Positions 4,153 to 53,529 of a stretch of DNA of 64,000 bases are shown one piece after another (positions within the stretch are counted from its first letter, which is position 1; each line of letters starts with the position of its first letter). The stretch spans positions 704,001 to 768,000 of the forward strand of contig CAWIAD010000002.1 in NCBI GenBank assembly GCA_963833985.1. The letters are read 5' to 3'. The stretch is from an uncultured Planctomycetaceae bacterium (GTDB lineage: Bacteria > Planctomycetota > Planctomycetia > Isosphaerales > Isosphaeraceae). The notes beneath the pieces are model-generated. The model searched no databases. It was not told where the DNA came from and was given only the letters and a program-made list of their open reading frames with translations. The position numbers and the translations under genes were made by a program.

Positions 4153-5715
4153 TCATTCGGGACCCTTTCGTCGATACTCGAGCGCGGCGGACTTGATCTC
4201 GACATTCCCCTTGAGCTCCTCGGCGAACGGCTGGTCGGCGATGGTGATGTCCTTGCGGATGATCTGGTAGGTACCGTGCTCGCGCGCGGCCTCGATGCAG
4301 ACCGTATAGGTGCCGGGGCCAAGCGCCTTGCCGTGGTCGTCCTTGCCGTCCCAGGTGAGGGAGTACTTGCCCGGCGGGCGAGTGGCGCGGGAGATCGTGT
4401 CGATCAGGTCGGTGTCGTCGGCAAGCCGGCGGACCTGGTCGTCGCGATACCAGCGCTTCAGGTCGGCGTGCCAGCGCGGGCCCGGCTGCCGGGTCATGAG
4501 CCAGAGGGCCAGCGTCCGGGCCGTGAGGCCGTCCTTGTCCTCGATCCAGACCGCGACGTAAGGGCGGCGGTACCGGCCCGCGTTCCCCTGTGGACCGTTC
4601 ACCTCGAAGCTCACGCGCAGCTCGTAAGCGTCTCCCCAGGTGCTGTTCAACAGGGCCTTCTCGCGGGCGGGGTCCGCGGGCGCGGGCGGGGCGGCAAGCA
4701 GCCGCAAGGGCCGCTCGTAGCGGGACCACCCGGCACTTCGCTGAACGTGCCCATCGGCCGTGACGATCAGGCACTCGGCGCCCGGAACCGAAGCGGCCAG
4801 GCGCAGGCCGTGCTCGACAGGGAGCACGTTCAGCGTGGTGGCCAGCGCATTGGCGTCGGCCGCCTGCTCCGCGATGACGGTGGCGCCCACCACGTTTCCG
4901 GCGGGCTGGCCCGTTCGCGGGTCGAAGATGTGCGAGTACCACCGGCCGCCGATGCGAAACCCGCGCTGCGCGCTGCCGCTTGTGGCCACCGAGCGGTTGC
5001 GGACTTCGACGCGGGAGATGGGCTCGGCCGTCTCCGAGTCGCTGACGGCGGGAGCGATGCCGACAGACCGGGCGGCGTCGCCGACGACGCGCACATCACC
5101 GCCGATGTTCAGCAGCACGCCCAGCACGCCCCGCTCGCGATCGAGCGCCACGTCGCTGGCACGGCCGATGATGAACCCCTTGGCGATCGAGTTCAAGCTC
5201 AGCGGGCAGGGACTCAGATGCTCGGCCGTGCCGGCGGCAGCGTCAAGACGCCACCCGGGGCGGGCCATGAGCGCCCTGGCCCTGGCCAGTTCCTCGGCGG
5301 TCGGCATCCGGTCAAGCCGGGCGCAGCGCGACCAGAGTTCGGTGAGGGCCTGCACGCGCGGGTCGAAGGCTCCGCCGCTCGCCTGCCGCCACCGGTCGCT
5401 GGCCCGGAGCAGCTCGCAGAGCTCCGGCGAAACCCTCGTCGGCTGGCCGATGGCCGCCTGCCAGCGGCGGAACTCGCTGGAGGCGTCGTAGCCGCTGAAG
5501 ACGGCGGCAAGGCGGTCGATCTCGGCGAGGGCACGAGCCTCGGCCGCTTGCGCGGCGTCCTCGGTCTCGGCCAGGATGCGGAGCTCCAGCGAGGTCCCCA
5601 GCACGTTCTCGTGGCGGAATACGTAGTCCCGGGCGGGCGGGGCGGCACCCAGGGCCAGCCCACACAGCAACACGCCCGCAATCCCCACAAACGACCGCGA
5701 AGTTCGAATCGTCAT
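4153..5715 (-). CDS. apbE: FAD:protein FMN transferase (ApbE) fused to a C-terminal DUF2271 domain
   Basis: LGTS, GAFDP, LNSIAKG, NIGGD, ATSG, SHIFDPRTG; C-terminal RRPYVAVWIED, TWDGKDD, IEAAREHG. Confidence 0.9.
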   Translation of the reverse strand: MTIRTSRSFVGIAGVLLCGLALGAAPPARDYVFRHENVLGTSLELRILAETEDAAQAAEARALAEIDRLAAVFSGYDASSEFRRWQAAIGQPTRVSPELCELLRASDRWRQASGGAFDPRVQALTELWSRCARLDRMPTAEELARARALMARPGWRLDAAAGTAEHLSPCPLSLNSIAKGFIIGRASDVALDRERGVLGVLLNIGGDVRVVGDAARSVGIAPAVSDSETAEPISRVEVRNRSVATSGSAQRGFRIGGRWYSHIFDPRTGQPAGNVVGATVIAEQAADANALATTLNVLPVEHGLRLAASVPGAECLIVTADGHVQRSAGWSRYERPLRLLAAPPAPADPAREKALLNSTWGDAYELRVSFEVNGPQGNAGRYRRPYVAVWIEDKDGLTARTLALWLMTRQPGPRWHADLKRWYRDDQVRRLADDTDLIDTISRATRPPGKYSLTWDGKDDHGKALGPGTYTVCIEAAREHGTYQIIRKDITIADQPFAEELKGNVEIKSAALEYRRKGPE

Positions 5716-6323
5716 CGGTCTGATGGCTCCCATGCTGATCGGACCACCGGTCTGGATTCGGCTAAAACTGGGGACGTTCCACGCCGTCCCGTCCACGCCC
5801 TTCGTCGGGTCCACGGCCCTCTTCTCCACGGAGTAAGCCCCCGCGCCCGCGCCGCGCCTGCACCGGCCTGCTGCTGCACAAGCTTTGTCAGCTCGTCCTT
5901 GTCGACGAACCCGTCCTTGTTCGCGTCGGCCCGCTCCAGAAGTCCCTGCATCCGCTCGGGAAGCTCGTCCTTGCTTAACTTCCCATCCCCGTTCTTGTCG
6001 AAGGCCATCATCCGCGCAACCAGCTCCGCGGGGTTCGGCCCGGCCTGGCCGCCCTCTCGGAAGGCCGGGAGATACTCGTCGCGCGTGAGCTTGCCGTCAT
6101 TGTTCCGGTCTAGAGTCCGCAGCGCGGTGGCTGCGTTGTCGATCTCCCGGGCGGAAAGTTCACCGTCGCCATCGGCGTCAAGGGCCGCGACAATCGGCAG
6201 GACCGGGAATCCACCCCCGGGCGGCCCCCCCCTTCCGGGCCGTCCCGGCGGCTGCGCGGGGACGGATCGGGCCAGGATGACCACCACGATCACCAGGCCG
6301 GACGCAAGCATCATTCGTCTCAT
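5712..6323 (-). CDS. Exported EF-hand domain protein (four EF-hand loops); 3' end may be frameshifted
   Basis: Signal peptide, then DADGDGELSARE, DRNNDGKLTRDE, DKNGDGKLSKDE, DANKDGFVDKDE. Confidence 0.8.
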   Translation of the reverse strand: MRRMMLASGLVIVVVILARSVPAQPPGRPGRGGPPGGGFPVLPIVAALDADGDGELSAREIDNAATALRTLDRNNDGKLTRDEYLPAFREGGQAGPNPAELVARMMAFDKNGDGKLSKDELPERMQGLLERADANKDGFVDKDELTKLVQQQAGAGAARARGLTPWRRGPWTRRRAWTGRRGTSPVLAESRPVVRSAWEPSDR

Positions 6324-6474
6324 GCGATTCGCTCCCATGGGAAAACGCGGGAACTCATGGGGTGCGCGGCCGTCCCGCCGGCCGCAGCCCGCCGCGCCCC
6401 GGTAATCTGCAAACATTCCTTGTATACGACACTCAGAGAAGTCAGAATCCCTTCATGCGATGTTTGGGGCATCG

Positions 6475-7644
6475 TCATCGCGAGGAAGGCCGCGCCGCGG
6501 GTCCGCCGTTGGGGATCGGTTCCTCGGAAATGGTGCCAGCCTCCTGACCCCGCAGATGCTGATCGAAGAACTGCCGGATGCGCTGCGCAACGTCCGGGCT
6601 CCGAAATCCGCCGTGCCCCGCGCCCGTCACCGGGACGAAGAGACAGCTCACACCGGCTTCCTTGAGCGCCCTGGAAAACCGCTCCGACTGGTTGAACGGG
6701 ACCAGCGGATCCGCCGTCCCGTGCAGGATCAGGAACGGCGGGTCTTCCCTCGAGACGTAAGTGATGGGCGAGGCCGCGCGGGCCGCATCCTTGTTTTCCT
6801 GCACGGGGCCGCCGATCAGTTGCGATTCGGGCGACTCGGGAGAGTTGTGTGAACCGCCCATCGCCGGCAGGTCGCTGGGGCCGAACTCGTCGACCACGCA
6901 TTGCACCTTGCTGCTGGTTCCCTGGTAAGGACCGACGTCTCCCTCGAGCGGGGCGATCCCTCCGCTGGTGCCCAGCATGGCCACCAGGTGCCCGCCGGCC
7001 GATCCGCCGATGACGCCGATCTTCTCGGGGTCGAAATGGTACTTCGAGGCATTGGCGCGGACCCAGCGAATCGCCGCCTTGCAGTCGTGGATCTGCGCCG
7101 GCCAGATCGCCTGCCCGCTGAGCCGGTAGTTGATCGAGACCGCGGCGTAATCTCCGCTGGCAACCAGGGGAAGGATCTCGCGCACGCCCATGCTCTTGTC
7201 GCCCATCCGGAAGGCACCGCCGTGGATGTTCACCACCACGGGCAATGGCTTTTCCCCCTTCGGTGCCTTCGGAACGTAGACGTCGAGCGTTTGCCTGGGG
7301 TCCTTCGTGGCGGCATAGGGGATGTTCCTCTCCACCTTCACCCTTTCGGGCGCCTGGACGTTCCCGCCGGGGCCCTGACCAGGACCACCAGGCCCGCCTG
7401 GGCCTCCAGCACGGTTGCGGAAGAACGCTTCGTCTTCCTGCCGGGAGATGAAGCCATCCTTGTTGGTGTCGATTGTGCCGAACTGGTCGCGGACGAATCC
7501 GGGCAGCTCATCGCGGCTCAGCTTGCCGTCCTTGTTGGTATCGAACCGTTCGAAGGGGCTGTTTCCGCCCGGAGGCTGCGCGTGAAGGACGCTGGCACAG
7601 AGAATCGTGAGGGCTGGCAGGACCCCTCGGACCAATCGGCTCAT
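6475..7644 (-). CDS. Exported alpha/beta hydrolase (esterase/lipase) with N-terminal EF-hands
   Basis: HGGAF oxyanion motif, GGSAGG nucleophile elbow, HGTADPLV, GAGHG; two EF-hand loops after the signal peptide. Confidence 0.9.
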   Translation of the reverse strand: MSRLVRGVLPALTILCASVLHAQPPGGNSPFERFDTNKDGKLSRDELPGFVRDQFGTIDTNKDGFISRQEDEAFFRNRAGGPGGPGGPGQGPGGNVQAPERVKVERNIPYAATKDPRQTLDVYVPKAPKGEKPLPVVVNIHGGAFRMGDKSMGVREILPLVASGDYAAVSINYRLSGQAIWPAQIHDCKAAIRWVRANASKYHFDPEKIGVIGGSAGGHLVAMLGTSGGIAPLEGDVGPYQGTSSKVQCVVDEFGPSDLPAMGGSHNSPESPESQLIGGPVQENKDAARAASPITYVSREDPPFLILHGTADPLVPFNQSERFSRALKEAGVSCLFVPVTGAGHGGFRSPDVAQRIRQFFDQHLRGQEAGTISEEPIPNGGPAARPSSR

Positions 7645-8126
7645 GGTGGGTTTTCCCTGGAGAGTTGGCGTCAGACCATGCACGACCCGGCAGCCGTCTC
7701 GAACGCTTGAGCGACAACAGGGGACGGCCTGGCGACCCTGGATTGTGGTATGGAAGCCTCTGGACGGGAAGTTTCATTAGCCTAAATTCCCCTTCATTGA
7801 AGCACGCGGAACCCTGCCGGTCCATTCGGACCTGCACGCTGATCGGTTTCGATTGCCCGCTGGCACTGCGCGACCGGCGCGTGCTCCGGATTCACGCCGT
7901 CCTCCCGGCCGCCCTCTTGCGGCGTCTCAACCGTAGCGCGACAATCGGTCTCAGGAGGCTCATGATGCCCGACGAATGTGGGCAAGCCTCGAGCACTGTT
8001 GCCGGCTCGCGACTCCAGGGCTTTCTCCGCCGTATCCCACCTGACACCAGGCCCGCCCAGAGACCCACCCGCCTCGAGCCGATCGGGAGGTGACCCGCTC
8101 CTTTTCTTGCTTTTTCAAGGAGAGCG

Positions 8127-42789: not shown

Positions 42790-45700
42790 ATGAACGTGAT
42801 CTTGCCATTACTCTTCTGGGCGATGGCCGAGCTTCCCGCATCGGCCGATGTGGCGCCGGTTCCGGTCGCGGGCGTGGTGGTTGATGCATCGGGACGGCCG
42901 GCTCAGAATGCGGAAGTCTGGCTGACGCGCGCGGTCCGATCCGAGGACGAGCGCCGATCGGCCGGGGCCCTTTCGTGGCATGCCTTTATCAGGAATGACG
43001 AAAGCACCGTCGCGGTTCGCTCGCGAACCGATGAGCAAGGGCGATTCCGGATCGAGGTATCGGCCGCGATCGCGGCCCGGTCCGACCCGATCGCCCTGGC
43101 AGTGTGGGCGTTTCATGGCGAGGAGGCGGTGACCATACGCCGCCTGCCGCGCGCGCTCAGGGCCGACGATCCACCGGACCGCTTGCCGCTCGGTACGGCC
43201 ACGCGCAGCAAGTGGGAAATCCATGGTCCCGACGGGCAGCCGATCGCCAGCGCCCGCGTGCGGCCCGCGGAAGTGCGTGAGATTCCGCTGCCGGAGGCTC
43301 TCGCCCGCCAGCTCGAGGTGACAACCGATCCCGAGGGCCGGTGCACGCTGCCGGGTTTGCCCCGCGACGCCATCGGCGCACTGCGGGTCCAGTCGCCCGC
43401 GTCGGGCATTCAGCATGTTGCCGTGAGCGGGAACACGAGCACAACGCTCACCCTGGCCCAGGTGGGGCGGGTCGCCGGCCGGCTGGTGGCACCCGAGGGT
43501 TTCGCACAGCCGATCCAAGGCGTCAGGATCCGGGTCCGGTCGCAGGTCGGCGGGTTCGACGGCTCGGGCATCTCGGGCGAGGCCGAGGCGGCGTGTGACG
43601 CGTCCGGGAACTTCGAGATCCCCGCAATCGCCGCGGGATTGCTCACGGTCGAGATCCTCTTTGATCGCGAACACGGCACACCCCTGCGCGGTGAGCCGCC
43701 GCGTGGACTGGTTCTCCGCGCGGGTTCGAGCGTCGAGGTCGCGATCCCCTTGCGCGCCACGGTACTGGTCCGGGGCGTGGTGCGCGACAAGGAGACGAAG
43801 AAGCCGGTCGCCGGGGTCAAGCTGGTGATGAACGGGGAGATGGGCGGAGACACGTTTGCCATCTCGGACGCCGCCGGGAACTACTCGGCGCACGTGGTCC
43901 GCGGGGTGGGCCAGCCGTTCGGCTGGGCGATCCAGGTTCCGCGGCCATTCTTTGAGCCCAGGGGGGCACGCGAGACGCCCCAGTCAATGCCCGCGCGTGA
44001 CCGTGCCGAGCTGGAGTTGCCTCCCATCGAACTCACACGCGGCCTCGATCTCGCGGGCGTTGTGGTCGACGAGTCTGGTAAGCCCGTGGGCGACGCCGAC
44101 GTTGAAGTGGTGTACGGCCAGGAGAACCTGACTCGCGCGGATCCGCAGGGACGGTTCCTGCTGCGCGGCGTTGATCCACGGCTCGACCTGAAGATCGAGG
44201 CCCGCAAGGGTGCTGCCACGTCGGGACGGACCACGATCGTGCGCGCGGGGAACCTGGCGACAGGCGCGCTTTCGCTCACGCTCCACGAAGCTCCATGGGG
44301 AGGCATTCGCGGCCGGGTCGTCGATCGAGCGGGCCAGCCCATCGAGCGCACCGCGGTGCGGATCTGGCGGCAGATCCCCATCGAAGGACGCACGTTTCTG
44401 AGAGAGCCGGCGGCCGGAGAGGACGGCGCAATCGTCTTCCGCACGGACGCCAACGGCCGGTTTCGGAGCACGCGTCCCTTGCCGCTGGGCGACGACTATG
44501 TCGTCGAGGTGACGGCTTCCGGGCACCTCCCGGCGCGAACTGCGGCCATCCGGCTTGCCGGCGGTGATCAGGCAGTTCCAGACATCACGCTGCCGGGCCT
44601 GCGGACGGTGACCGGCCAGGTCGCCGATCGAACGGGCAGGCCGCTCGGTGGTGTGCGAGTGCTTCAGTCGGGCGATGGACCGCTGCGCACGGAGACCACC
44701 ACCGATGAGAGCGGGCGGTTCCAGCTTGGCGGCGTGATGGAGGGCCCGGCGTTCGTGTTCGCCTCCAGGGAAGGGTACCGATCCGGCTTCCAGGCCATCG
44801 GTGCGGACAGCACGCCGGTCAAGCTCACACTTCTGCGCGGCGACGAACCGCCGATCCGAAAGTACAGGACCCTGGACTCTGCCTTGCCGGCTGATCAAGA
44901 GAAGACCTTGGCCCGGCGGCTCATCGAGCCGTACGTCCGGCGCGTGCTGGACCACGGATCGGACCAGCAAAAGTTTCGCATGGTCATGAACGCGGCGCAG
45001 GTCGATGCTCTGGTGCTGCTCGATAAGTTCGAGACGATCAAGTTCAGGAATTCCGACTTTTCGCATCTGGCGCGCGTCCGGTTCGTGGAAGGCCTGGCGA
45101 AGGAGAACCCGGACGAAGCACTCGCACAGGCCGAGGTGAGTACACTGCCCGAGGCGCGCGCGATCAGTTACGTGAGCATCTGGGAGCTGCAGCCCGAACT
45201 GGACAGGGCCAAGGTCCGCGAGCTGGTGGATCAGGCACTGCTGAACGCGCGGGCGATCAAGTCGCCCGAGCAGAGGATCGCCATCAGCGCGGATCGCCGA
45301 CAAGCTCATCGACCTGGGAGAAAAAGAGCCGGCGCAAGCTGCTCACCGAGGCAGAAGCGCTGGCGGGCTCCACCAGGAAGGGCAAGACCAGGGATTTCAA
45401 CCTGATCAGCGTCGCCGAGGCCCTGGCGCGGCTGGACCCGCCCGCGGCACTCAGGCTGCTCGATGACTTCGAGCAGGAAATTCGCAAGAATAATAAAATC
45501 GATTTGACGTATGTATTTGTGAGAGGCTATGGAACCACGGCGTACAAGATCGCGGCCGGGGCGCCGGAGGTCGCGGAGCAGATCCTCCAGAAGATCCGCG
45601 GCCTCGATCCTCGCCAGCCCAACAACTACGTCGTCGCCGTGTGCTCCAGAATGGCACCCACCGACCTGCCGCGCCCGGCGCATCGCCGCGACGATGTTCG

Positions 45701-46335
45701 ATGACAGGACGATCGGGATGCAACCTTATGCCCTGGGACTGATGGCACAGGCGGTTGCCGCGTCCGACCGGCCGGCAGCCGTGGGCCTGCTAGAGGCCGC
45801 ATTCCATGAGCTGGAGCAACAGCAGCCAACCCGGAGCGGCACGACGCTTCATGGAAAAGCACAGCTCGCCGGTGCGCTCTTGCCCGTGGTCGAGGATGTC
45901 GAACCGGATCGCTTGCCCGAGTTCACCGCCCGAGCCATTGCGCTGCGCGAGCCCTGGCTCGACGGCAGTAGTGTGGCTGAACACGCTGAGGAGATCGCCC
46001 AGATCGCGATGATGATTGCCCGTTATGACCGTGAGCTGGCGTTGCATCTGCTCGAGCCCCAGGTCAAGCAGCTCGCGATGGTCCGCGGTCCGGCCGGCTC
46101 CGACTTCACCTCGTTCCGGGTGCTCGCGGCGCTGGCCCTGATCGACCCGCGCCGGGCTGTCGAGCTGGCGGAAAGCCTCCCCGACGATCCGGCGCCTGGC
46201 CTCGACGAGAACACGCCCAAGAACCTTGCCCGAATACAGCTCGCCGTGTTGCTCGCCGCGCACGGCAAGGCGCGCTGGCAGCAGGTTTACGACAGTTATC
46301 TGAACCTCTGGACTCCGGGACAACGCTATCTCTGA
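42790..46335 (+). CDS. Large exported protein with repeated carboxypeptidase-regulatory-like domains and helical C-terminus (frameshifts near 45290 and 45670)
   Basis: Repeated GxVVDxxGxP...TDxxGRF units; colinear with the next gene to the C-terminus. Confidence 0.8.
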
Positions 46336-46361: not shown

Positions 46362-49300
46362 ATGGCTGCTCTCGCGCTGCTTTTCTCAATCACGCTTTCG
46401 GCCCAGCTTGCACCCTCGGCCGATCCCCGGCCGGTGCCTGTCTCGGGCATCGTCCTCGATTCCGCCGGCAAACCGGCGGCCGGTGTCACGGTCTGGCTGA
46501 TCGACGGCTTGCCCGCCGAGGCGTTCCGCTGGTTTGGCGACGAGCTTCGCGTGGCGCCTTACGCCGGGCCCGGCGTGGGTCTGCCGAGGATTCGAGTGGA
46601 AACGCGAACCGACGCTTCAGGCCGGTTCGCGCTCGAGGTTCCGGCCAGCTTCATCGCCCGCCGCTGGCAGAATCCCCTGGTCCTCCTGGCCCATCAGCCG
46701 GGGACACCGCTCGCGATCCATCGGCTGCCAGGGCCGCTGGGACAGGATCCTGCGCCGGTTGACTTGCCGCTTCAGGCCGGCGAGGGAACGGCGCTGCGGG
46801 TGCTGGCCCCTGCCGGAACGCCGGTCGCCGGGGCGATCGTCGAGCCGCGCGATCTCGATGACGTGCCGCTCGATGTTCTTCTGGGCGGTCCGCTCGGCGG
46901 CACGACCGACAGCCAGGGCCGCGTGGTGCTGGCGTCGGTGCCGCGCGGCCTGTTGCGGGAGGTCGCGGTCACGGCGCCTGGTCTTGGCACCCAGCGCCTG
47001 CGGATCGATGGCGATCCGGCGGCGGACCTCCGGCTTACGCCGGTGGGAAGACTGGCGGGACGCCTGGTGGCACAGGGAAACGAGCCAATCCGCGGGGTGA
47101 GCATCAAGGCCACAACGCTCGTGGGGGGATTCGCGGGCACGGGCCGAAGCGGCTGGGCCCAGGCGGCGGCCGATGCCTCCGGCCGGTTCGAGATCCCGGC
47201 CATCGCCGCGGGGATGCTCACGCTGGAAGTCGTGCTGGACCCCAGAGCGGGTGCCAGGCTCTGCACCGAGCCCCATCGCGGGATCGTCGTGGCGGACGGG
47301 ACGACGACCGAGCTCACCATCCCGCTCCTCCCGTCCGTCCGGATCGCGGGATCGGTCCAGGAACAGGGGACGAATCGTCCCATAACCGGCGCTCTGGTGC
47401 AACTGGACGGGATGTTCGGCGGCGACTGTTTCGCGGTGACCGATTCCGGCGGCAAGTATGAGGGCTTCATCGCTCGCGAGAATTTTCAGCCTTACGGCTG
47501 GACGATTCGCGAGCCGATCCCATTCTTCTTTCCCACGGTGATCAAGGACACCTATCAGCGCATGCCGCCGCCGGGAACCGATGAGCTCGTGATCCCGCCT
47601 CTCGAGCGGCCGCGCGGAGTCGACGTGCCCGGCCGCGTCGTGGATGACATGGGGCGCGCCGTCGCGGGTGCCACGGTGGAAGGAACCTGGCGGCACGGCA
47701 CGGGCCGAACCCAGCTCGCAATGGCTCGCGCCGATGCCCAGGGCCGGTTCGTCCTCCACGGGGTCGATCCCGCGGCCGAGTTGACCTACCGCGCCTGGCG
47801 GGGTGATTTGTGCACGTCCGGGACGACCACGGCGCAGGCCTCCGCCGCGCTCACGAAGCCCGTCACGCTGAGCATCACGCCCAAGGCTGCCGCGCAGCTC
47901 GGCGGCCGGGTGCTCGACACCGCAGGCCAGCCAATCGCCGGCGCAGCGGTGCGAGTCTGGCGCGTGGGCCGCGGCAAGGACGGCGGTGTGACCGAGCTGG
48001 AACCGATCCTGTCCGGGGACGGACGCGCGATTGTCCGGAGCGGATCGGATGGCCGCTACCAGACACTCAGAAAGGTTCACCTCCCCGACGAGTTCTTCGC
48101 CGAGGTCCAGGCGCCGGGACGGCTTGGCGATCGGTCACTCACGGTCCTCGTGGCCGATGAGAAGCAAGAGATCCCATCTGTGATCCTCCGCCGGGTCGGT
48201 TCGATCTCCGGCCAGGTGGTCGACCGCCAGGGCCAGCCCGTGGCCGGTGCCCTGGTGCGGCAAGCGGGTGATGGACCGATGCCGACGGAGGCGACCACGA
48301 ACGTGCAGGGCCGGTTCGAGCTTCCTGGCGTGCGCTCAGGACCGGCGATCGTGACGGTCTCGAAACCGGGCTACCGAATCGAGCCCCATCTCGTTGCAGA
48401 CAGCCAGGCGCCCGACCGACCCGTCCTGACGCGCAGCGATGAGCCGGCCGCGCGCGCGTACAGCACCCTCCCTCCGGCCATGACCGCCGAGCAGGAACTC
48501 GCGCTGATCCGCCGGCTCGTTTCGCCGCTGGCCAGGCGGATCCTCAAGGAGGGGACCGAGGACGACCGGCGCAGGATCATGAGCAGTCTCGCGGAAATCG
48601 ATCCCGCATGGGCCCTGGAGCATCTGGATTCGGTCAAGTTCGCCGATCCGGACGCTCCCGACGAGGTTCGAGCGAGCATCGCCGGCGCCCTGCTACGCGA
48701 CGACGCCGACGAGGCCGCCACGGTCATCGAGAGCATCAAAAGCCCAGCGCAGAAGGTTTTTGTTTACGCCAGTAGCGCGCGGGAACTGCTGAAGCGCGAC
48801 CCAGCCCGAGCCCGGCAGTATCTCGACCAGGCGATCGTGAATCTCAGGTTAGCCAGTCCACGAAGCCAGGTCTTCTCGACGCAGACCATCAGTGACCTGC
48901 TCGTCGATCTCGGCGAGACGCAGCGTGCCCGCCAGTGGCTCAAGGACCAGCGGCAAAAGTTTGAATCGCTCTACACCGGGGGGCAACGGAGCTATTACAT
49001 CGCAAGCCAGATTCTTGTTCCGATGGCCCGGATCGACGCGCCTGCCGCGCTGGCGGAATTCGAGACGCTGCGACGCAACGTTGAGCGCGAATCGAATCCA
49101 CGCGACCCAATAGTATTCGATAGACAGCTGGATAAGATCGCCTTTCACCTTGCCGATCGATCGCCCGCGGAGGCGGAACGGCTGCTGCGGAGGGTCGCAT
49201 CCTCAGGGGAATCGATCCGTTCCCTCGATGGCCTGGTCCTCGGGATCTGCCGGCGGATGGCCGCCAGAGACTTGCCCCGCGCCAGGAGCCTCACCGGACT

Positions 49301-49946
49301 GATCGGCAACGCGGAGATCGAAGAGAAGGCATTCGCCCTCGGTCTCATGGCCGGGGCGATTGCCCAGGCTGAGAAAACGACGGCGCTTCGCCTGCTCGAT
49401 GAGGCGTACACCGAGCTCGAGCGGCAGAGAGCACGCGGCAGGGTCAGCCAGTTCTGCACGATCGCGGGTGTGGCCGGTGGTTTACTGCCCATCGTCGAGC
49501 AGGTCGACGCCAGCCGCTTGCCCGAATATCTGTCGCGGGCCATCGCGCTGCGGCCCCTGCCGGGCGCGTGGAGCGAGGGCTCGTACATCCCCAACCAGAA
49601 CGCGCGGCTGGCGATGATGGTGGCGCGCTACGACCGGAAGCTGGCCGCTCTGGTCATACAGCCGGACCTCGATCGTCTGGGCAAGCTCTGGTTGTCGGCC
49701 CACGGAATCGAACTGCGAACTCGCGTCACCCTCTGTGCCCTGGCCCTGGTTGATCCGCTCAGGGCCGTGGAGATGATCGAAAGTCTGCCGGAGAGCCCGG
49801 GCCCGGGGCTGAATGGGTTCACTCCGGGCGAGAACGACATCCGCATCGATTGTGCCCGGCTGCTGTCGCTGCGCGGTGACGACCGCTGGCGGCAGGTCTA
49901 TCAACAGTTCCTCCTGGTCTGGACGCCGGACCAGGAATTGCGCTGA
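46362..49946 (+). CDS. Large exported protein, full-length paralog of 42790-46335
   Basis: Intact 1194 aa ORF with signal peptide and the same repeat units; shared FEIPAIAAG, QxGDGP, MMxARYDR, WTP. Confidence 0.85.
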   Translation: MAALALLFSITLSAQLAPSADPRPVPVSGIVLDSAGKPAAGVTVWLIDGLPAEAFRWFGDELRVAPYAGPGVGLPRIRVETRTDASGRFALEVPASFIARRWQNPLVLLAHQPGTPLAIHRLPGPLGQDPAPVDLPLQAGEGTALRVLAPAGTPVAGAIVEPRDLDDVPLDVLLGGPLGGTTDSQGRVVLASVPRGLLREVAVTAPGLGTQRLRIDGDPAADLRLTPVGRLAGRLVAQGNEPIRGVSIKATTLVGGFAGTGRSGWAQAAADASGRFEIPAIAAGMLTLEVVLDPRAGARLCTEPHRGIVVADGTTTELTIPLLPSVRIAGSVQEQGTNRPITGALVQLDGMFGGDCFAVTDSGGKYEGFIARENFQPYGWTIREPIPFFFPTVIKDTYQRMPPPGTDELVIPPLERPRGVDVPGRVVDDMGRAVAGATVEGTWRHGTGRTQLAMARADAQGRFVLHGVDPAAELTYRAWRGDLCTSGTTTAQASAALTKPVTLSITPKAAAQLGGRVLDTAGQPIAGAAVRVWRVGRGKDGGVTELEPILSGDGRAIVRSGSDGRYQTLRKVHLPDEFFAEVQAPGRLGDRSLTVLVADEKQEIPSVILRRVGSISGQVVDRQGQPVAGALVRQAGDGPMPTEATTNVQGRFELPGVRSGPAIVTVSKPGYRIEPHLVADSQAPDRPVLTRSDEPAARAYSTLPPAMTAEQELALIRRLVSPLARRILKEGTEDDRRRIMSSLAEIDPAWALEHLDSVKFADPDAPDEVRASIAGALLRDDADEAATVIESIKSPAQKVFVYASSARELLKRDPARARQYLDQAIVNLRLASPRSQVFSTQTISDLLVDLGETQRARQWLKDQRQKFESLYTGGQRSYYIASQILVPMARIDAPAALAEFETLRRNVERESNPRDPIVFDRQLDKIAFHLADRSPAEAERLLRRVASSGESIRSLDGLVLGICRRMAARDLPRARSLTGLIGNAEIEEKAFALGLMAGAIAQAEKTTALRLLDEAYTELERQRARGRVSQFCTIAGVAGGLLPIVEQVDASRLPEYLSRAIALRPLPGAWSEGSYIPNQNARLAMMVARYDRKLAALVIQPDLDRLGKLWLSAHGIELRTRVTLCALALVDPLRAVEMIESLPESPGPGLNGFTPGENDIRIDCARLLSLRGDDRWRQVYQQFLLVWTPDQELR

Positions 49947-49967
49947 ATACGAGGGAGGTTGCCAATC

Positions 49968-51354
49968 ATGATCGCTCTGCCTCTGACATGTCTCGCCCTC
50001 ACCCTGGCGGGTCTTCCGCCGGGCGATCACAAACCCCAGCCTGCCGCGGAAGCCTGGCAATTCGTGCTGCCGGGGGCTGGCGATCCGTTCGAGCATCCGC
50101 CGTTCCGTGCCATGGTCCTCAGCCGCGACAAGCCGGAGGATGTGAGCGAGAAGGTCGCCTATCGCGGCACGACTCGGCGCTACGGGCAGCTCCGCTACGG
50201 TAGCCCGGGCTCGGTGCGCGTGACGGTCGTGCTCGACGAGATGGGGCCCGGCGACGTCGACCTGTTCGTCGATGCCAATCGCGACCGCAAGATCGATGAC
50301 CGCGACTGCGTCGCTGGAACGAAGAACGGCACGAGCCGTGAACGGGTCTGGCGCATGCCGCTCGACGTGGCCATGGTCGAGGGCGAGGTGACGAAGCTGA
50401 CCCGCCGCGCCCTGATTCTTCGCCTGGGCGCCACCGGGCGGACTCTCGGCTATGCGTCGGCCGGGTATCTCGCGGGGACAGTCCTCATGGAGGGCCAGCC
50501 TCGCTCGGTCCGGCGCATGGATGGCGACGGCAACGGCCTTCTGACCGATGGCCAGGACCGGCTCTGGATTGACCTCAATCACGACGGCCAGTGGGACGCC
50601 GCGTCCGAGCAGTTCCTGTACACGACCATCCTCAACCTGGAAGGGAAGCGGTACGTGCTGCGGTCCGACACGCTCGGCACGCGACTGGCGCTTCGAGCCG
50701 CTCGTCGGCACGGGGAGCGTCCAGCTTGCTCTGGGGACGGGGAAGGCCAAGGCCGCTGAGCTGCACGCGACACTCGTCGGCCGCGACGGGTCGGCGTTTG
50801 GCCTCTCCGGCAACGAGCCGGCGACCGTGCCCGTGGGCGAGTACCGGCTGAGCACGGTCACGGTGACGTTTGATGATCCCCAGGGAGGCCTGAGCTGGTC
50901 GTTCATCTTCTCCGACAACGGCGCGCGAGGCGACCTCAAGTGGTACACCGTCGGCAAGGACCAGCAGCGGTCGATCGACCCGATCGGCACGCTGGAGATG
51001 GCGCTCACCGTGGCCGACAAGGTGAAGGCGGTGAAGCCGGGCGAGGATGTTTCCGTCCAGCCGGCGCTCTACACGGGCGATGGCCTCCTGATCAACGTGG
51101 CCTATCGCGGCACGCCCACGTCGGCCTCGGCCCAGGAATACGCCGGTGCGCTCACCACGCTGGCCACGACCGACGGCCAAACGCTCGGTACTGCGCACTC
51201 GGGCTTTGCCTGAGGCACCTTCTGCGCGGCCTCGGTTCGAGTGCCCCAATCTCAGCCCGCCGGTCCCGTCCAGTTTTCCACCGAATTCAACAGCGGCCCG
51301 CTTGCGGGTGTCCTGCGCAAGGCCGTCACGGTCGAGGTGAACACGAAGCCTTGA
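49968..51354 (+). CDS. Exported protein, candidate selenoprotein (in-frame TGA at 51211-51213; frameshift near 50690)
   Basis: Signal peptide; DxNxDG-type loops; ...HSGFA-TGA-GTFCAASVRVP...NSGPLAGVLRKAVTVEVNTKP-stop. The CDS is well supported; the read-through is inferred. Confidence 0.7.
51228..51245 (+). promoter_or_regulatory. Putative bacterial SECIS hairpin
   Basis: GGC-CUCG [GUU] CGAG-U-GCC; the loop starts with GU, 21 nt after the UGA. Confidence 0.5.
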
Positions 51355-51407
51355 CCGTGGTTATAATTGGATGTCAAGAAGCCCCGTGCCGCCTTCAGGA
51401 GACTGCC

Positions 51408-51722
51408 ATGTTCGATCTGATCAAGAAGACATTGCTCACCGGCGTCGGTCTGGCCGTCATGACCAGGGACAAGGTAGAAGAGCTGGGCAAGGACTTCGCC
51501 TCGCAGGCCAAGCTCTCCGAGATCGAGGGCAAGGAATTTGTCGATCACCTGATGCAGCAGTCCGAGACGGCCCGCAAGGAGTTCGAGACGCGCATCAACT
51601 CCGCCGTGCAGAAAGCCGTCTCGACCTTGAACCTGGCCAGCAAGGACGAGGTCGCGCGGCTCTCGGCGAAGGTCGAGGAACTGACGGCGAAGCTGGATAG
51701 CGGCAAGGCAACGAGCGTTTGA
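51408..51722 (+). CDS. Phasin-like small coiled-coil protein, copy 1
   Basis: MFDLIKKTLLTGVGLAVMT...EGKEFVDHL...LNLASKDEVARL; AGGAG RBS. Confidence 0.8.
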   Translation: MFDLIKKTLLTGVGLAVMTRDKVEELGKDFASQAKLSEIEGKEFVDHLMQQSETARKEFETRINSAVQKAVSTLNLASKDEVARLSAKVEELTAKLDSGKATSV

Positions 51723-52115
51723 ACGCGTGAAGATTATTCGACGGGCGGCCGCACATCGGGCTCGACCTGGTAGCCGCTGGCGAGCGCATTGGTCATGGAA
51801 AGCGGTTCTGGCTGGCCTAAGCTCGCGGCTGCTGATCTGATCAGCCCATCGCGATGTTACCAATCCCTCTGGAGTGAGGTTGCGAAGCGGACATCTCCCA
51901 GAGCCTCCTCCGGCGAATCCTGCTCGCCTGACCGAAAGCAAGCGGCTCCCGATCACGGTCGAGACGACCTTACCATGATCCCCGTCATTGGCCAGATTCA
52001 TTGAGAGCGTCCAGATGCCCGCAAGAGCTTAGGGCTAGACTTAGACTCACCAGCGCTGTAACCGGTGAACCATAACGGAAAACGCACAAACCTATTGTGA
52101 CCGGAAGGGAAACCA

Positions 52116-52591: not shown

Positions 52592-52765
52592 GCCCGATCG
52601 GATGCCGCCTTTCAGTCTGTTTCAGAGGGATGTCCCTGCCTGGGTGCTTGTGTTGGGTCTTTCGTACCCCATGTCTGGCCTTGGCCCGGCAGCAAATCGT
52701 AAACGGTAATGCGAGGTATAATCGGCTTGGAGTCATCGCGGATTCTCATCCTTCAGGAGACTGCC

Positions 52766-53080
52766 ATGTTCGATCTGATCAAGAAGACATTGCTCACCGG
52801 CGTCGGTCTGGCCGTCATGACGAAGGACAAGGTGGAAGAGCTGGGCAAGGACTTCGCCTCGCAGGCCAAGCTCTCCGAGATCGAGGGCAAGGAATTTGTC
52901 GATCACCTGATGCAGCAGTCCGAGACGGCCCGCAAGGAGTTCGAGACGCGCATCAACTCCGCCGTGCAGAAGGCCGTCTCGACCTTGAACCTGGCCAGCA
53001 AGGACGAGGTCGCGCGGCTCTCGGCGAAGGTCGAGGAACTGACGGCGAAGCTGGATAGCGGCAAGGGTACGAGCGTTTGA
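52766..53080 (+). CDS. Phasin-like small coiled-coil protein, copy 2
   Basis: Differs from copy 1 at two residues. Confidence 0.8.
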   Translation: MFDLIKKTLLTGVGLAVMTKDKVEELGKDFASQAKLSEIEGKEFVDHLMQQSETARKEFETRINSAVQKAVSTLNLASKDEVARLSAKVEELTAKLDSGKGTSV

Positions 53081-53091
53081 ACGCGTGAAGA

Positions 53092-53529
53092 TTATTCGAC
53101 GGGCGGCCGCACATCGGGCTCGACCTGGTAGCCGCTGGCGAGCGCATTGGTCATGTTGAAGAGGCCGACGATGGCGAGGATCTCGCCGAGCGTTTCCGGG
53201 TCGACGCCCAGCTTGCGCAGGGCCGCGGTGTGCGAGTTGATGCAGTAAGGGCAGGCGTTGGTGGCCGAGACGGCCAGCGCGATGATCTCGCGCGTCTTCG
53301 GGTCGAGCCGCGCGGTGTGGCCGACCGCTTCGGGATGCATGAGCGTCTTGAGGTTCGTCCACACCAGCTCGAGCTGCATCGGATTGGTGGCGAGCACCTG
53401 CCAGAAGCGCGGGACGAAGTTGATCTTCTTGGTCGCCTTGATGTCGGCGTAGATCGCGGCGACCTTGCCAGTGGCCTCATGCTCTTCCACGGGTCGGACG
53501 GTTGCCATGCGTGAGTCGGGTTGCGGCAT
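53092..53529 (-). CDS. Carboxymuconolactone decarboxylase / AhpD-like protein
   Basis: REIIALAVSATNACPYCINSH (CxxC...H). Confidence 0.9.
   Translation of the reverse strand: MPQPDSRMATVRPVEEHEATGKVAAIYADIKATKKINFVPRFWQVLATNPMQLELVWTNLKTLMHPEAVGHTARLDPKTREIIALAVSATNACPYCINSHTAALRKLGVDPETLGEILAIVGLFNMTNALASGYQVEPDVRPPVE

Follow-up and report, generated by a model that had tools for sequence, protein, structure and literature searches.

The gene analysed here encodes a member of an apparently uncatalogued superfamily of planctomycetal proteins, in which an in-frame TGA (51211-51213) is almost certainly decoded as selenocysteine (Sec) by SelB and tRNA-Sec, by means of a hairpin located within the open reading frame (ORF). 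The same near-certainty applies, jointly with this decoding, to the form of the family product, i.e. an all-beta, three-part protein of ~460 residues with Sec in an inter-strand loop of a C-terminal Ig-like domain. The recoding mechanism itself is standard. Taken as a whole, the data are best explained by Sec recoding in an intact gene whose product would act as a redox relay in the cell envelope, a reading to which we assign a probability of about 55%.

Gene organization and reading frame

The gene resides in a 64,000-nt stretch of DNA (the window) from the 10.2-Mb, 96% complete genome (G000) of an uncultured bacterium of the Planctomycetota. The features of the region are as follows.

46362..49946, + strand: conserved neighbour gene encoding 1194 aa (sequence, Pfam), ending 21 nt upstream of the selenoprotein start
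49951..49970, + strand: ribosome-binding site GAGGGAGG and ATG start at 49968 (sequence)
49968..50030, + strand: hydrophobic N-terminus, putative signal peptide (the homologs start similarly hydrophobic)
50050..50690, + strand: all-beta region of the N-terminal part, containing three acidic loops of the form D-x-[DN]-x-[DN]-[GR], probable Ca2+ sites
50690..50692, + strand: one extra base in comparison with homologs, giving a +1 frameshift (DNA alignment with relatives)
50707..50985, + strand: middle beta-sandwich region (model of homolog L007)
50986..51351, + strand: C-terminal Ig-like (MG2-like) domain carrying Sec (model, structural and profile comparison)
51211..51213, + strand: in-frame TGA, predicted Sec codon of S-G-F-A-U-G-T-F-C (comparison of loci)
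51223..51225, + strand: TGC codon for Cys at +4 (UxxxC), kept in all 49 TGA loci of the subfamily
51228..51245, + strand: predicted bacterial SECIS hairpin with apical loop GUU (51235-51237) beginning 21 nt past the UGA (folding, conservation)
51352..51354, + strand: true stop codon TGA (homologs terminate within a few codons of the same point)

The initial annotation treated 49968-51354 as one gene frame. This is incorrect, as the 1387-nt segment is divided between two frames, and the one opened by ATG 49968 stops at 50757-50759. The description of the region around the internal TGA was accurate: the codon follows ...GTAHSGFA, the frame then remains open for 46 further codons (GTFC...NTKP), a Cys lies four residues after the TGA, and the extension has coding-like third positions (third-position GC of 0.78). 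The DxNxDG-type loops reported are also present, in the form of the three acidic motifs listed above (starting at 50271, 50520 and 50571), which are probable Ca2+ sites. Export of the protein by a signal peptide is likewise predicted. The annotated product size of ~460 aa agrees with that of the family but not with the assembled copy, which is frameshifted upstream of the TGA; a product of ~461 residues from the window copy requires the extra base to be an error.

Conservation of the TGA codon

The TGA and the sequence flanking it on either side are conserved, as anticipated in the initial annotation for a genuine Sec codon, in 49 of 50 related loci and in 30 of 32 distant superfamily contexts. 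The 50 loci (all fetched loci in which the family profile reached the site, identical 75-nt contexts having been removed) carry TGA in 49 cases and TGC in one, and the distant contexts carry TGA in 30 and TGC in two, although these loci are kin and the counts are therefore not independent. Homologs ending at this position with TAA or TAG, which would argue for termination, were present in none of the 50 loci and none of the 32 contexts. The conserved sequence following the TGA reads G-T-F-C-x-A-S-V-R-V-P. The expected alignment of TGA with TGA or Cys was also observed, with TGC in L077, L108 and L110 and Cys in the database proteins P0034, P0057 and P0109.

When 41 related genomes were first searched, 11 of them gave a match. 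The matches numbered 17, of which 15 contain the TGA and the other two are fragments short of the site. In a database of 1.84 billion representatives, 829 match at E<=0.001. Among the best 150 of these 829 (<50% mutually identical), 114 terminate with the sequence G-[FY]-x, whose final residue immediately precedes the codon, and three (the P proteins named above) read through the site with Cys; one database record (P0343) has W there. In a second protein database, 119 of the 120 matches listed end just before the codon. At locus L089 the frame runs on for 551 codons past the TGA, into a region with a LamG match.

The SECIS hairpin

The segment 51228-51245 reads GGCCTCGGTTCGAGTGCC and, when folded alone, adopts the originally proposed structure GGC-CUCG[GUU]CGAG-U-GCC at -8.8 kcal/mol. 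On its own this hairpin is not significant (z -1.41), and alternative folds surpass it in contexts of 50-100 nt. A crude scan of G000 revealed 141 TGAs with coding-like flanks and a similar hairpin, most of them noise. The case for Sec rests on conservation and not on this one sequence.

The third base of codon +5 is G in 49/49 TGA loci, across at least eight amino acids. In the same loci, Ala is encoded by GCC in 45/45 cases (genome frequency 0.48), Arg by CGA in 43/46 (0.08) and Val by GTG in 45/47 (0.43). Silent positions are thus fixed as pairing demands, i.e. synonymous sites are locked into the hairpin. Six pairs of the stem are kept in 46-49 of the 49 TGA loci and the closing pair in 38, and the one TGC locus, in which the hairpin is lost, reaches only -3.8 kcal/mol, compared with -7.2 to -12.1 kcal/mol in TGA loci.

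Covariation, named in the initial annotation as a possible support for the hairpin, was indeed detected in distant relatives. The alignment comprised 38 sequences (13 of the 49 TGA loci, chosen for diversity, and 25 of 36 distant contexts, with CU-type, Cys-form and one near-duplicate row excluded). The 7-pair stem is paired in 72.9%, against 61.6% in shuffled alignments, and its covariation score of 0.294 (0.146 shuffled) was reached in 0/500 shuffles and exceeds that of all slid registers; for the 4-pair core, 3/500 shuffles did so. Since the structure was derived from the same, related sequences, covariation supports but does not prove the hairpin.

The general model of bacterial SECIS elements in section 5 of PMC13188914 specifies a loop of 3-9 nt with an early G, a stem of 4-16 bp, a distance of 16-37 nt from the UGA and an MFE <= -7.5, and the window hairpin conforms to it in loop, spacing (21 nt) and energy. 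It also resembles the in-ORF elements of the SelA/SelB/SelC/SelD system in having the UGA followed by a stem with a loop of 3-5 nt, G-U in the first loop positions, the same 21-nt spacing and -8.8 kcal/mol, together with the machinery in the genome; the mechanism shows no difference. An Rfam search gave no model at E<=1.

Sec machinery

The four genes whose presence was to be expected (selA, selB, selC, i.e. tRNA-Sec, and selD) were all found in G000, where selD itself contains one in-frame TGA. Either selA or selB was above the cut-off in 22/22 TGA-bearing genomes tested, a result to be read against the high base rate of selA among relatives (30 of 41 above the cut-off); the selA match of G020 includes a TAG. 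In two genomes carrying the Cys form, G107 and G211 (91% complete), neither selA/selB nor the hairpin was detected, and in a third, G482, selB is present.

Several other candidate selenoproteins were noted. An in-frame TGA at G000:C2:4615473 (minus strand), in VFYRSADW-U-PFC, likely belongs to an AhpC/TSA-type UxxC selenoprotein. An exported TlpA-like gene with TGA at FWGNW-U-GPC (L096:12107-13258) lies two genes downstream of a superfamily member. Directly downstream of another member, a PSRC-U-HTSLYGP gene (L078:4892-7120) reads through into a beta-propeller domain. In the superfamily member L089 itself (4808-7693), read-through merges two ORFs into a protein of ~940 residues, which has a hydrophobic C-terminus as well as regions of the F5/8-like and LamG types.

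Structure of the Sec-containing protein

The model of L007, an intact homolog 64-70% identical to the halves of the window gene, reached a pLDDT of 93 with a 100-row alignment and is all-beta beyond an N-terminal helix. An Ig-like sandwich, made up of residues 337-458, matches several Ig domains with Z of 9-10; Sec and the Cys at +4 are both located in its loop that separates strand 402-408 from strand 418-421. Of the nine strands predicted for this domain, three are encoded past the UGA, so that termination at this codon would yield a truncated domain.

The domain resembles MG2 of alpha-2-macroglobulin and complement (PF01835; Z 9.2-9.5, rmsd 2.3-2.6, 97-102 residues aligned), and four of the 35 members scanned also score weakly, below the cut-off, for this Pfam family (best E 0.013). 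The Sec-domain proteins contain no other macroglobulin domains. Many Ig-like domains tie at Z 9-10, which makes the fold a common one, and MG2 domains are not known to bear a chalcogen site. Foldseek gave diffuse beta-sandwich matches with both models (TM <= 0.23 by query), and the best match of the Sec-domain profile among PDB sequences was an S-layer Ig domain (E 0.004). The structures of nDsbD and DUF1573 were absent from the top 50 structural matches.

An Ig-like fold is also adopted by nDsbD. This periplasmic redox domain, whose Cys103-Cys109 pair takes part in thiol-disulfide exchange (PMC3137068), would be a functional analogue of the mechanism proposed below, although it employs Cys instead of Sec and a different spacing. 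No profile match to it was obtained, and the membrane and thioredoxin domains of DsbD were absent from the neighbourhoods examined.

The N-terminal region of the protein is common to TlpA/redoxin and AhpC-TSA fusion proteins (TM 0.46 to AhpC-TSA clusters). Exported thioredoxins of the TlpA/ResA type in Planctomycetota share with the present family the acidic-loop region and the hydrophobic N-terminus, but end in a thioredoxin fold with W-C-G-P-C, whereas the selenoproteins end in an Ig fold with Sec. A thioredoxin-fold UxxC selenoprotein (Trx, TlpA or Prx-like) was rejected on the grounds of the all-beta model, the UxxxC spacing and the lack of a Pfam match.

A superfamily with diverse Sec loops

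Weak matches to the N-terminal region also carry TGA at the corresponding place, and a search seeded by one of them gave matches in 46 of 251 genomes of the phylum. A profile built without the window's subfamily recovers the window domain with an E-value of 2e-8 (calculated for 10,000 sequences), the Sec columns being aligned with a probability of 97.6%. The Sec-domain profile matches about a third of the Planctomycetota genomes of >=90% completeness (100 of 301), with up to eight superfamily matches per genome, and TGA is present in 132 of the 150 matches listed, of 183 in total. Narrow-pattern scans yielded three loci in genome contigs and two in metagenome contigs. Judging by names and taxa, the database matches derive mostly from Planctomycetota.

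The loop occurs in several forms: GFA-U-GTFC (as in the window), EYG-U-GGTC, GSC-U-GRG and a double Sec, G/E-S-U-U-G, in L133, L134 and L135. The last three loci, whose relatives have CU or CC at this place, are candidates for vicinal double-Sec proteins. Other variants comprise CC (three loci), CxxxC, loops in which a lone Sec is not accompanied by the +4 Cys, and paralogs devoid of either chalcogen residue; the 17 loop regions behind the rarer variants were picked as exceptions. The +4 Cys is lacking in L114, L117, L126, L128 and one member on L132, and the tandem short paralogs L141 and L147 (G180) have neither Cys nor Sec in the loop. Across this far larger superfamily, pairing of Sec with a +4 Cys thus represents one option among several. 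A CxxCH heme-type motif is present upstream of the Sec domain in L118 and L128, which are possible cytochrome c fusions.

The initial annotation did not recognize the protein as a named selenoprotein family, and our comparisons agree: no selenoprotein model of NCBIfam (June 2026) matches either of the two halves of the window gene, or any of 3 and 30 members scanned, and no Pfam family was above the cut-off for the domain in the 35 members tested. None of the 119 families of Table 1 in PMC13188914 fits, as judged by the domains and motifs given there and by NCBIfam/Pfam scans. The OS_HP2/DUF1573 selenoprotein, which also has Sec near a Cys, was considered separately. It too possesses an Ig-like fold. 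Identity with it was rejected, as its motif is UGC and not UxxxC/CU/UU, the Sec domain ends a ~460-residue protein, and profile matches are lacking; model NF041425 hits nine other places in G000 at E<=1 but not the window gene, and PF07610 (DUF1573) has no match at E<=1 in 35 members. The named database records are all hypothetical or uncharacterized, and the fetched proteins contain no U. In the literature covered, we found no description of the family; the families of Haft and Tolstoy (2025) were compared through NCBIfam and the table of PMC13188914, and the word "planctomyc" is absent from the main text of PMC13326102, PMC13745706 and PMC12013277.

Genetic neighbourhood

The protein encoded directly upstream (46362..49946) has a hydrophobic N-terminus and six matches to the beta-sandwich family CarboxypepD_reg (PF13620), followed by a ~480-residue region that is helical-repeat-like according to the alignment consensus. 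Of the 50 subfamily loci, 45 have a neighbour of this type in the same orientation at a distance of up to 2.5 kb; for four of the other five, the available upstream sequence is shorter than 800 bases. G000 contains 10 clusters of genes of this kind (~0.8% of the genome), most of them confirmed by Pfam, a count obtained with nine queries from the same or related loci and including some self-hits. By sequence inspection, some database entries are fusions in which the protein is linked to portions of the neighbour or to BlaR1/M56-like N-terminal regions. Complex prediction with a natural Cys-form protein and the helical region of the neighbour gave a score of 0.15, and no DsbD/CcdA-like reductant partner was found among the 53 neighbouring proteins scanned.

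Downstream of the gene, a near-identical 406-nt duplication (window 51392-51797 and 52750-53155) spans a phasin-like gene (PF05597) together with the last part of a CMD/AhpD-like gene on the opposite strand. A sigma-70-like promoter (TGAACA-18-TATAAT, window 51338-51367) overlaps the end of the selenoprotein gene and precedes the phasin-like gene.

Proposed function and alternative explanations

We propose that the protein is exported to the periplasm/envelope, where it may act as a Se-S redox relay; we put this function at even odds. The selenolate would react with an envelope target at a disulfide, sulfenic acid or peroxide, with resolution through a Se-S bond to the Cys at +4, or to an adjacent Cys or Sec in sister subfamilies. 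The acidic-loop N-terminal region, which bears the TlpA thioredoxin domain in other proteins, may be a Ca2+-stiffened stalk or docking part, and the co-encoded beta-repeat/helical protein could be a scaffold or client. We favour a redox relay because sister proteins have a TlpA domain where the present family has the Sec domain, and because pairs of chalcogen residues are found repeatedly (UxxxC, CU, UU, CC and CxxxC, all in the same loop). The UxxC TlpA-like gene near the member in L096 and the CxxCH motifs of two members were also counted in favour of redox. A two-chalcogen cycle would not be universal, since several members lack the +4 Cys and some paralogs lack both Cys and Sec.

The main rival also assumes a real selenoprotein, but one that is exported in order to bind a soft metal or metalloid (Cu, Hg, As, Zn) at this loop. 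The CU, UU and CC pairs do resemble the CU motifs given for the metal-related SaoL, HgcA and MbdU in Table 1 of PMC13188914, and single-Sec members could bind metal too. However, the exchange with the TlpA domain indicates thiol redox, and families of metal transport or resistance were absent among the 53 neighbouring proteins scanned, which leads us to consider a metal site possible but rather unlikely.

A different question concerns the integrity of the window copy, in which alignment with the DNA of relatives places one surplus base at ~50690-50692. Most probably this base is an artefact of the assembly, and the organism itself carries an intact gene. The frequency of frameshifts in this assembly supports such a view: when genes sampled from G004 (3 contigs, 99% complete) were compared with G000, 17 of 117 orthologs (~15%; 0.12 per kb) proved to be frameshifted, and at this rate ~16% of equally long genes would look broken through error. 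In addition, both halves of the gene are under purifying selection (dN/dS 0.13-0.33 against five relatives); the extension after the TGA has a dN/dS of 0.19-0.61, with lower synonymous divergence. It is less likely, at perhaps one chance in five, that the family consists of selenoproteins but that the G000 copy is a recent pseudogene arising from a real +1 insertion, an explanation compatible with any function. The assembled sequence is indeed frameshifted, G000 has no second copy of the gene, and contigs of the single public DNA run do not span 50690-50692 (one ends 3 nt beyond the TGA); nevertheless, there is only one lesion, the hairpin is intact, and the selection and error rate given above point to an intact gene. 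A programmed frameshift is unlikely, as 44 of the 50 loci are unbroken across residues 225-250; the remaining six are three with breaks at 230, 242 and 245, two in which the stretch is missing, and G000 itself. With ~15% of the tested orthologs frameshifted, other findings of broken genes in this assembly call for caution. A second CarboxypepD_reg/helical paralog in the window (42790-46335) is split into two ORFs at ~45400-45530, probably by another frameshift.

Selenoprotein genes are often located near sel genes through co-transfer. Members of the superfamily directly adjoin selA/selB in G226, G224 and G082, and in G226, where the gene order is member-tRNA-Sec-selA-selB, a member lies directly upstream of tRNA-Sec. 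This proximity, together with the up to eight matches per genome, might suggest a selenide/selenite carrier that captures, stores or passes on selenium in the envelope for Sec synthesis. We regard such a role as improbable, since the G000 gene lies ~71 kb from selA, Cys forms remain in the two genomes without detected selA/selB, and co-transfer makes proximity of this kind common.

That the TGA is an ordinary stop, with the 46-codon tail untranslated or forming a separate element, is very improbable: every named database record ends there and the hairpin by itself is insignificant, yet TAA and TAG never replace the codon in the 50 loci and 32 distant contexts, some homologs read through with Cys, the tail shows conservation at the protein level and supplies the final strands of the Ig fold, and the L089 frame continues as far as its LamG match.

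Significance of the Sec superfamily

Most catalogued bacterial selenoproteins are thioredoxin-like, and an Ig-fold superfamily with predicted export adds to them. Hundreds of database proteins of the subfamily are cut within their last domain and named hypothetical. The natural series of UxxxC, CU, UU, CC and chalcogen-free loops offers material for comparing selenium with sulfur, and experimental tests are practical, since the family is carried by cultured species: WP_148597554.1 and WP_165226506.1 of Aquisphaera, and the Cys form WP_213494912.1 of Telmatocola.

In broader terms, we tentatively suggest, as a view more likely wrong than right in its entirety, that a selenium-redox system operates in the envelope throughout the Planctomycetota, its catalyst being not a thioredoxin but an Ig domain that presents Sec on a hairpin loop (UxxxC, CU, UU), combined with interchangeable stalks and large beta-repeat scaffolds. 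The superfamily would then rank among the selenoprotein superfamilies with the widest distribution in the phylum, would in some lineages move together with the sel genes, and might represent a main reason why these bacteria keep Sec decoding.
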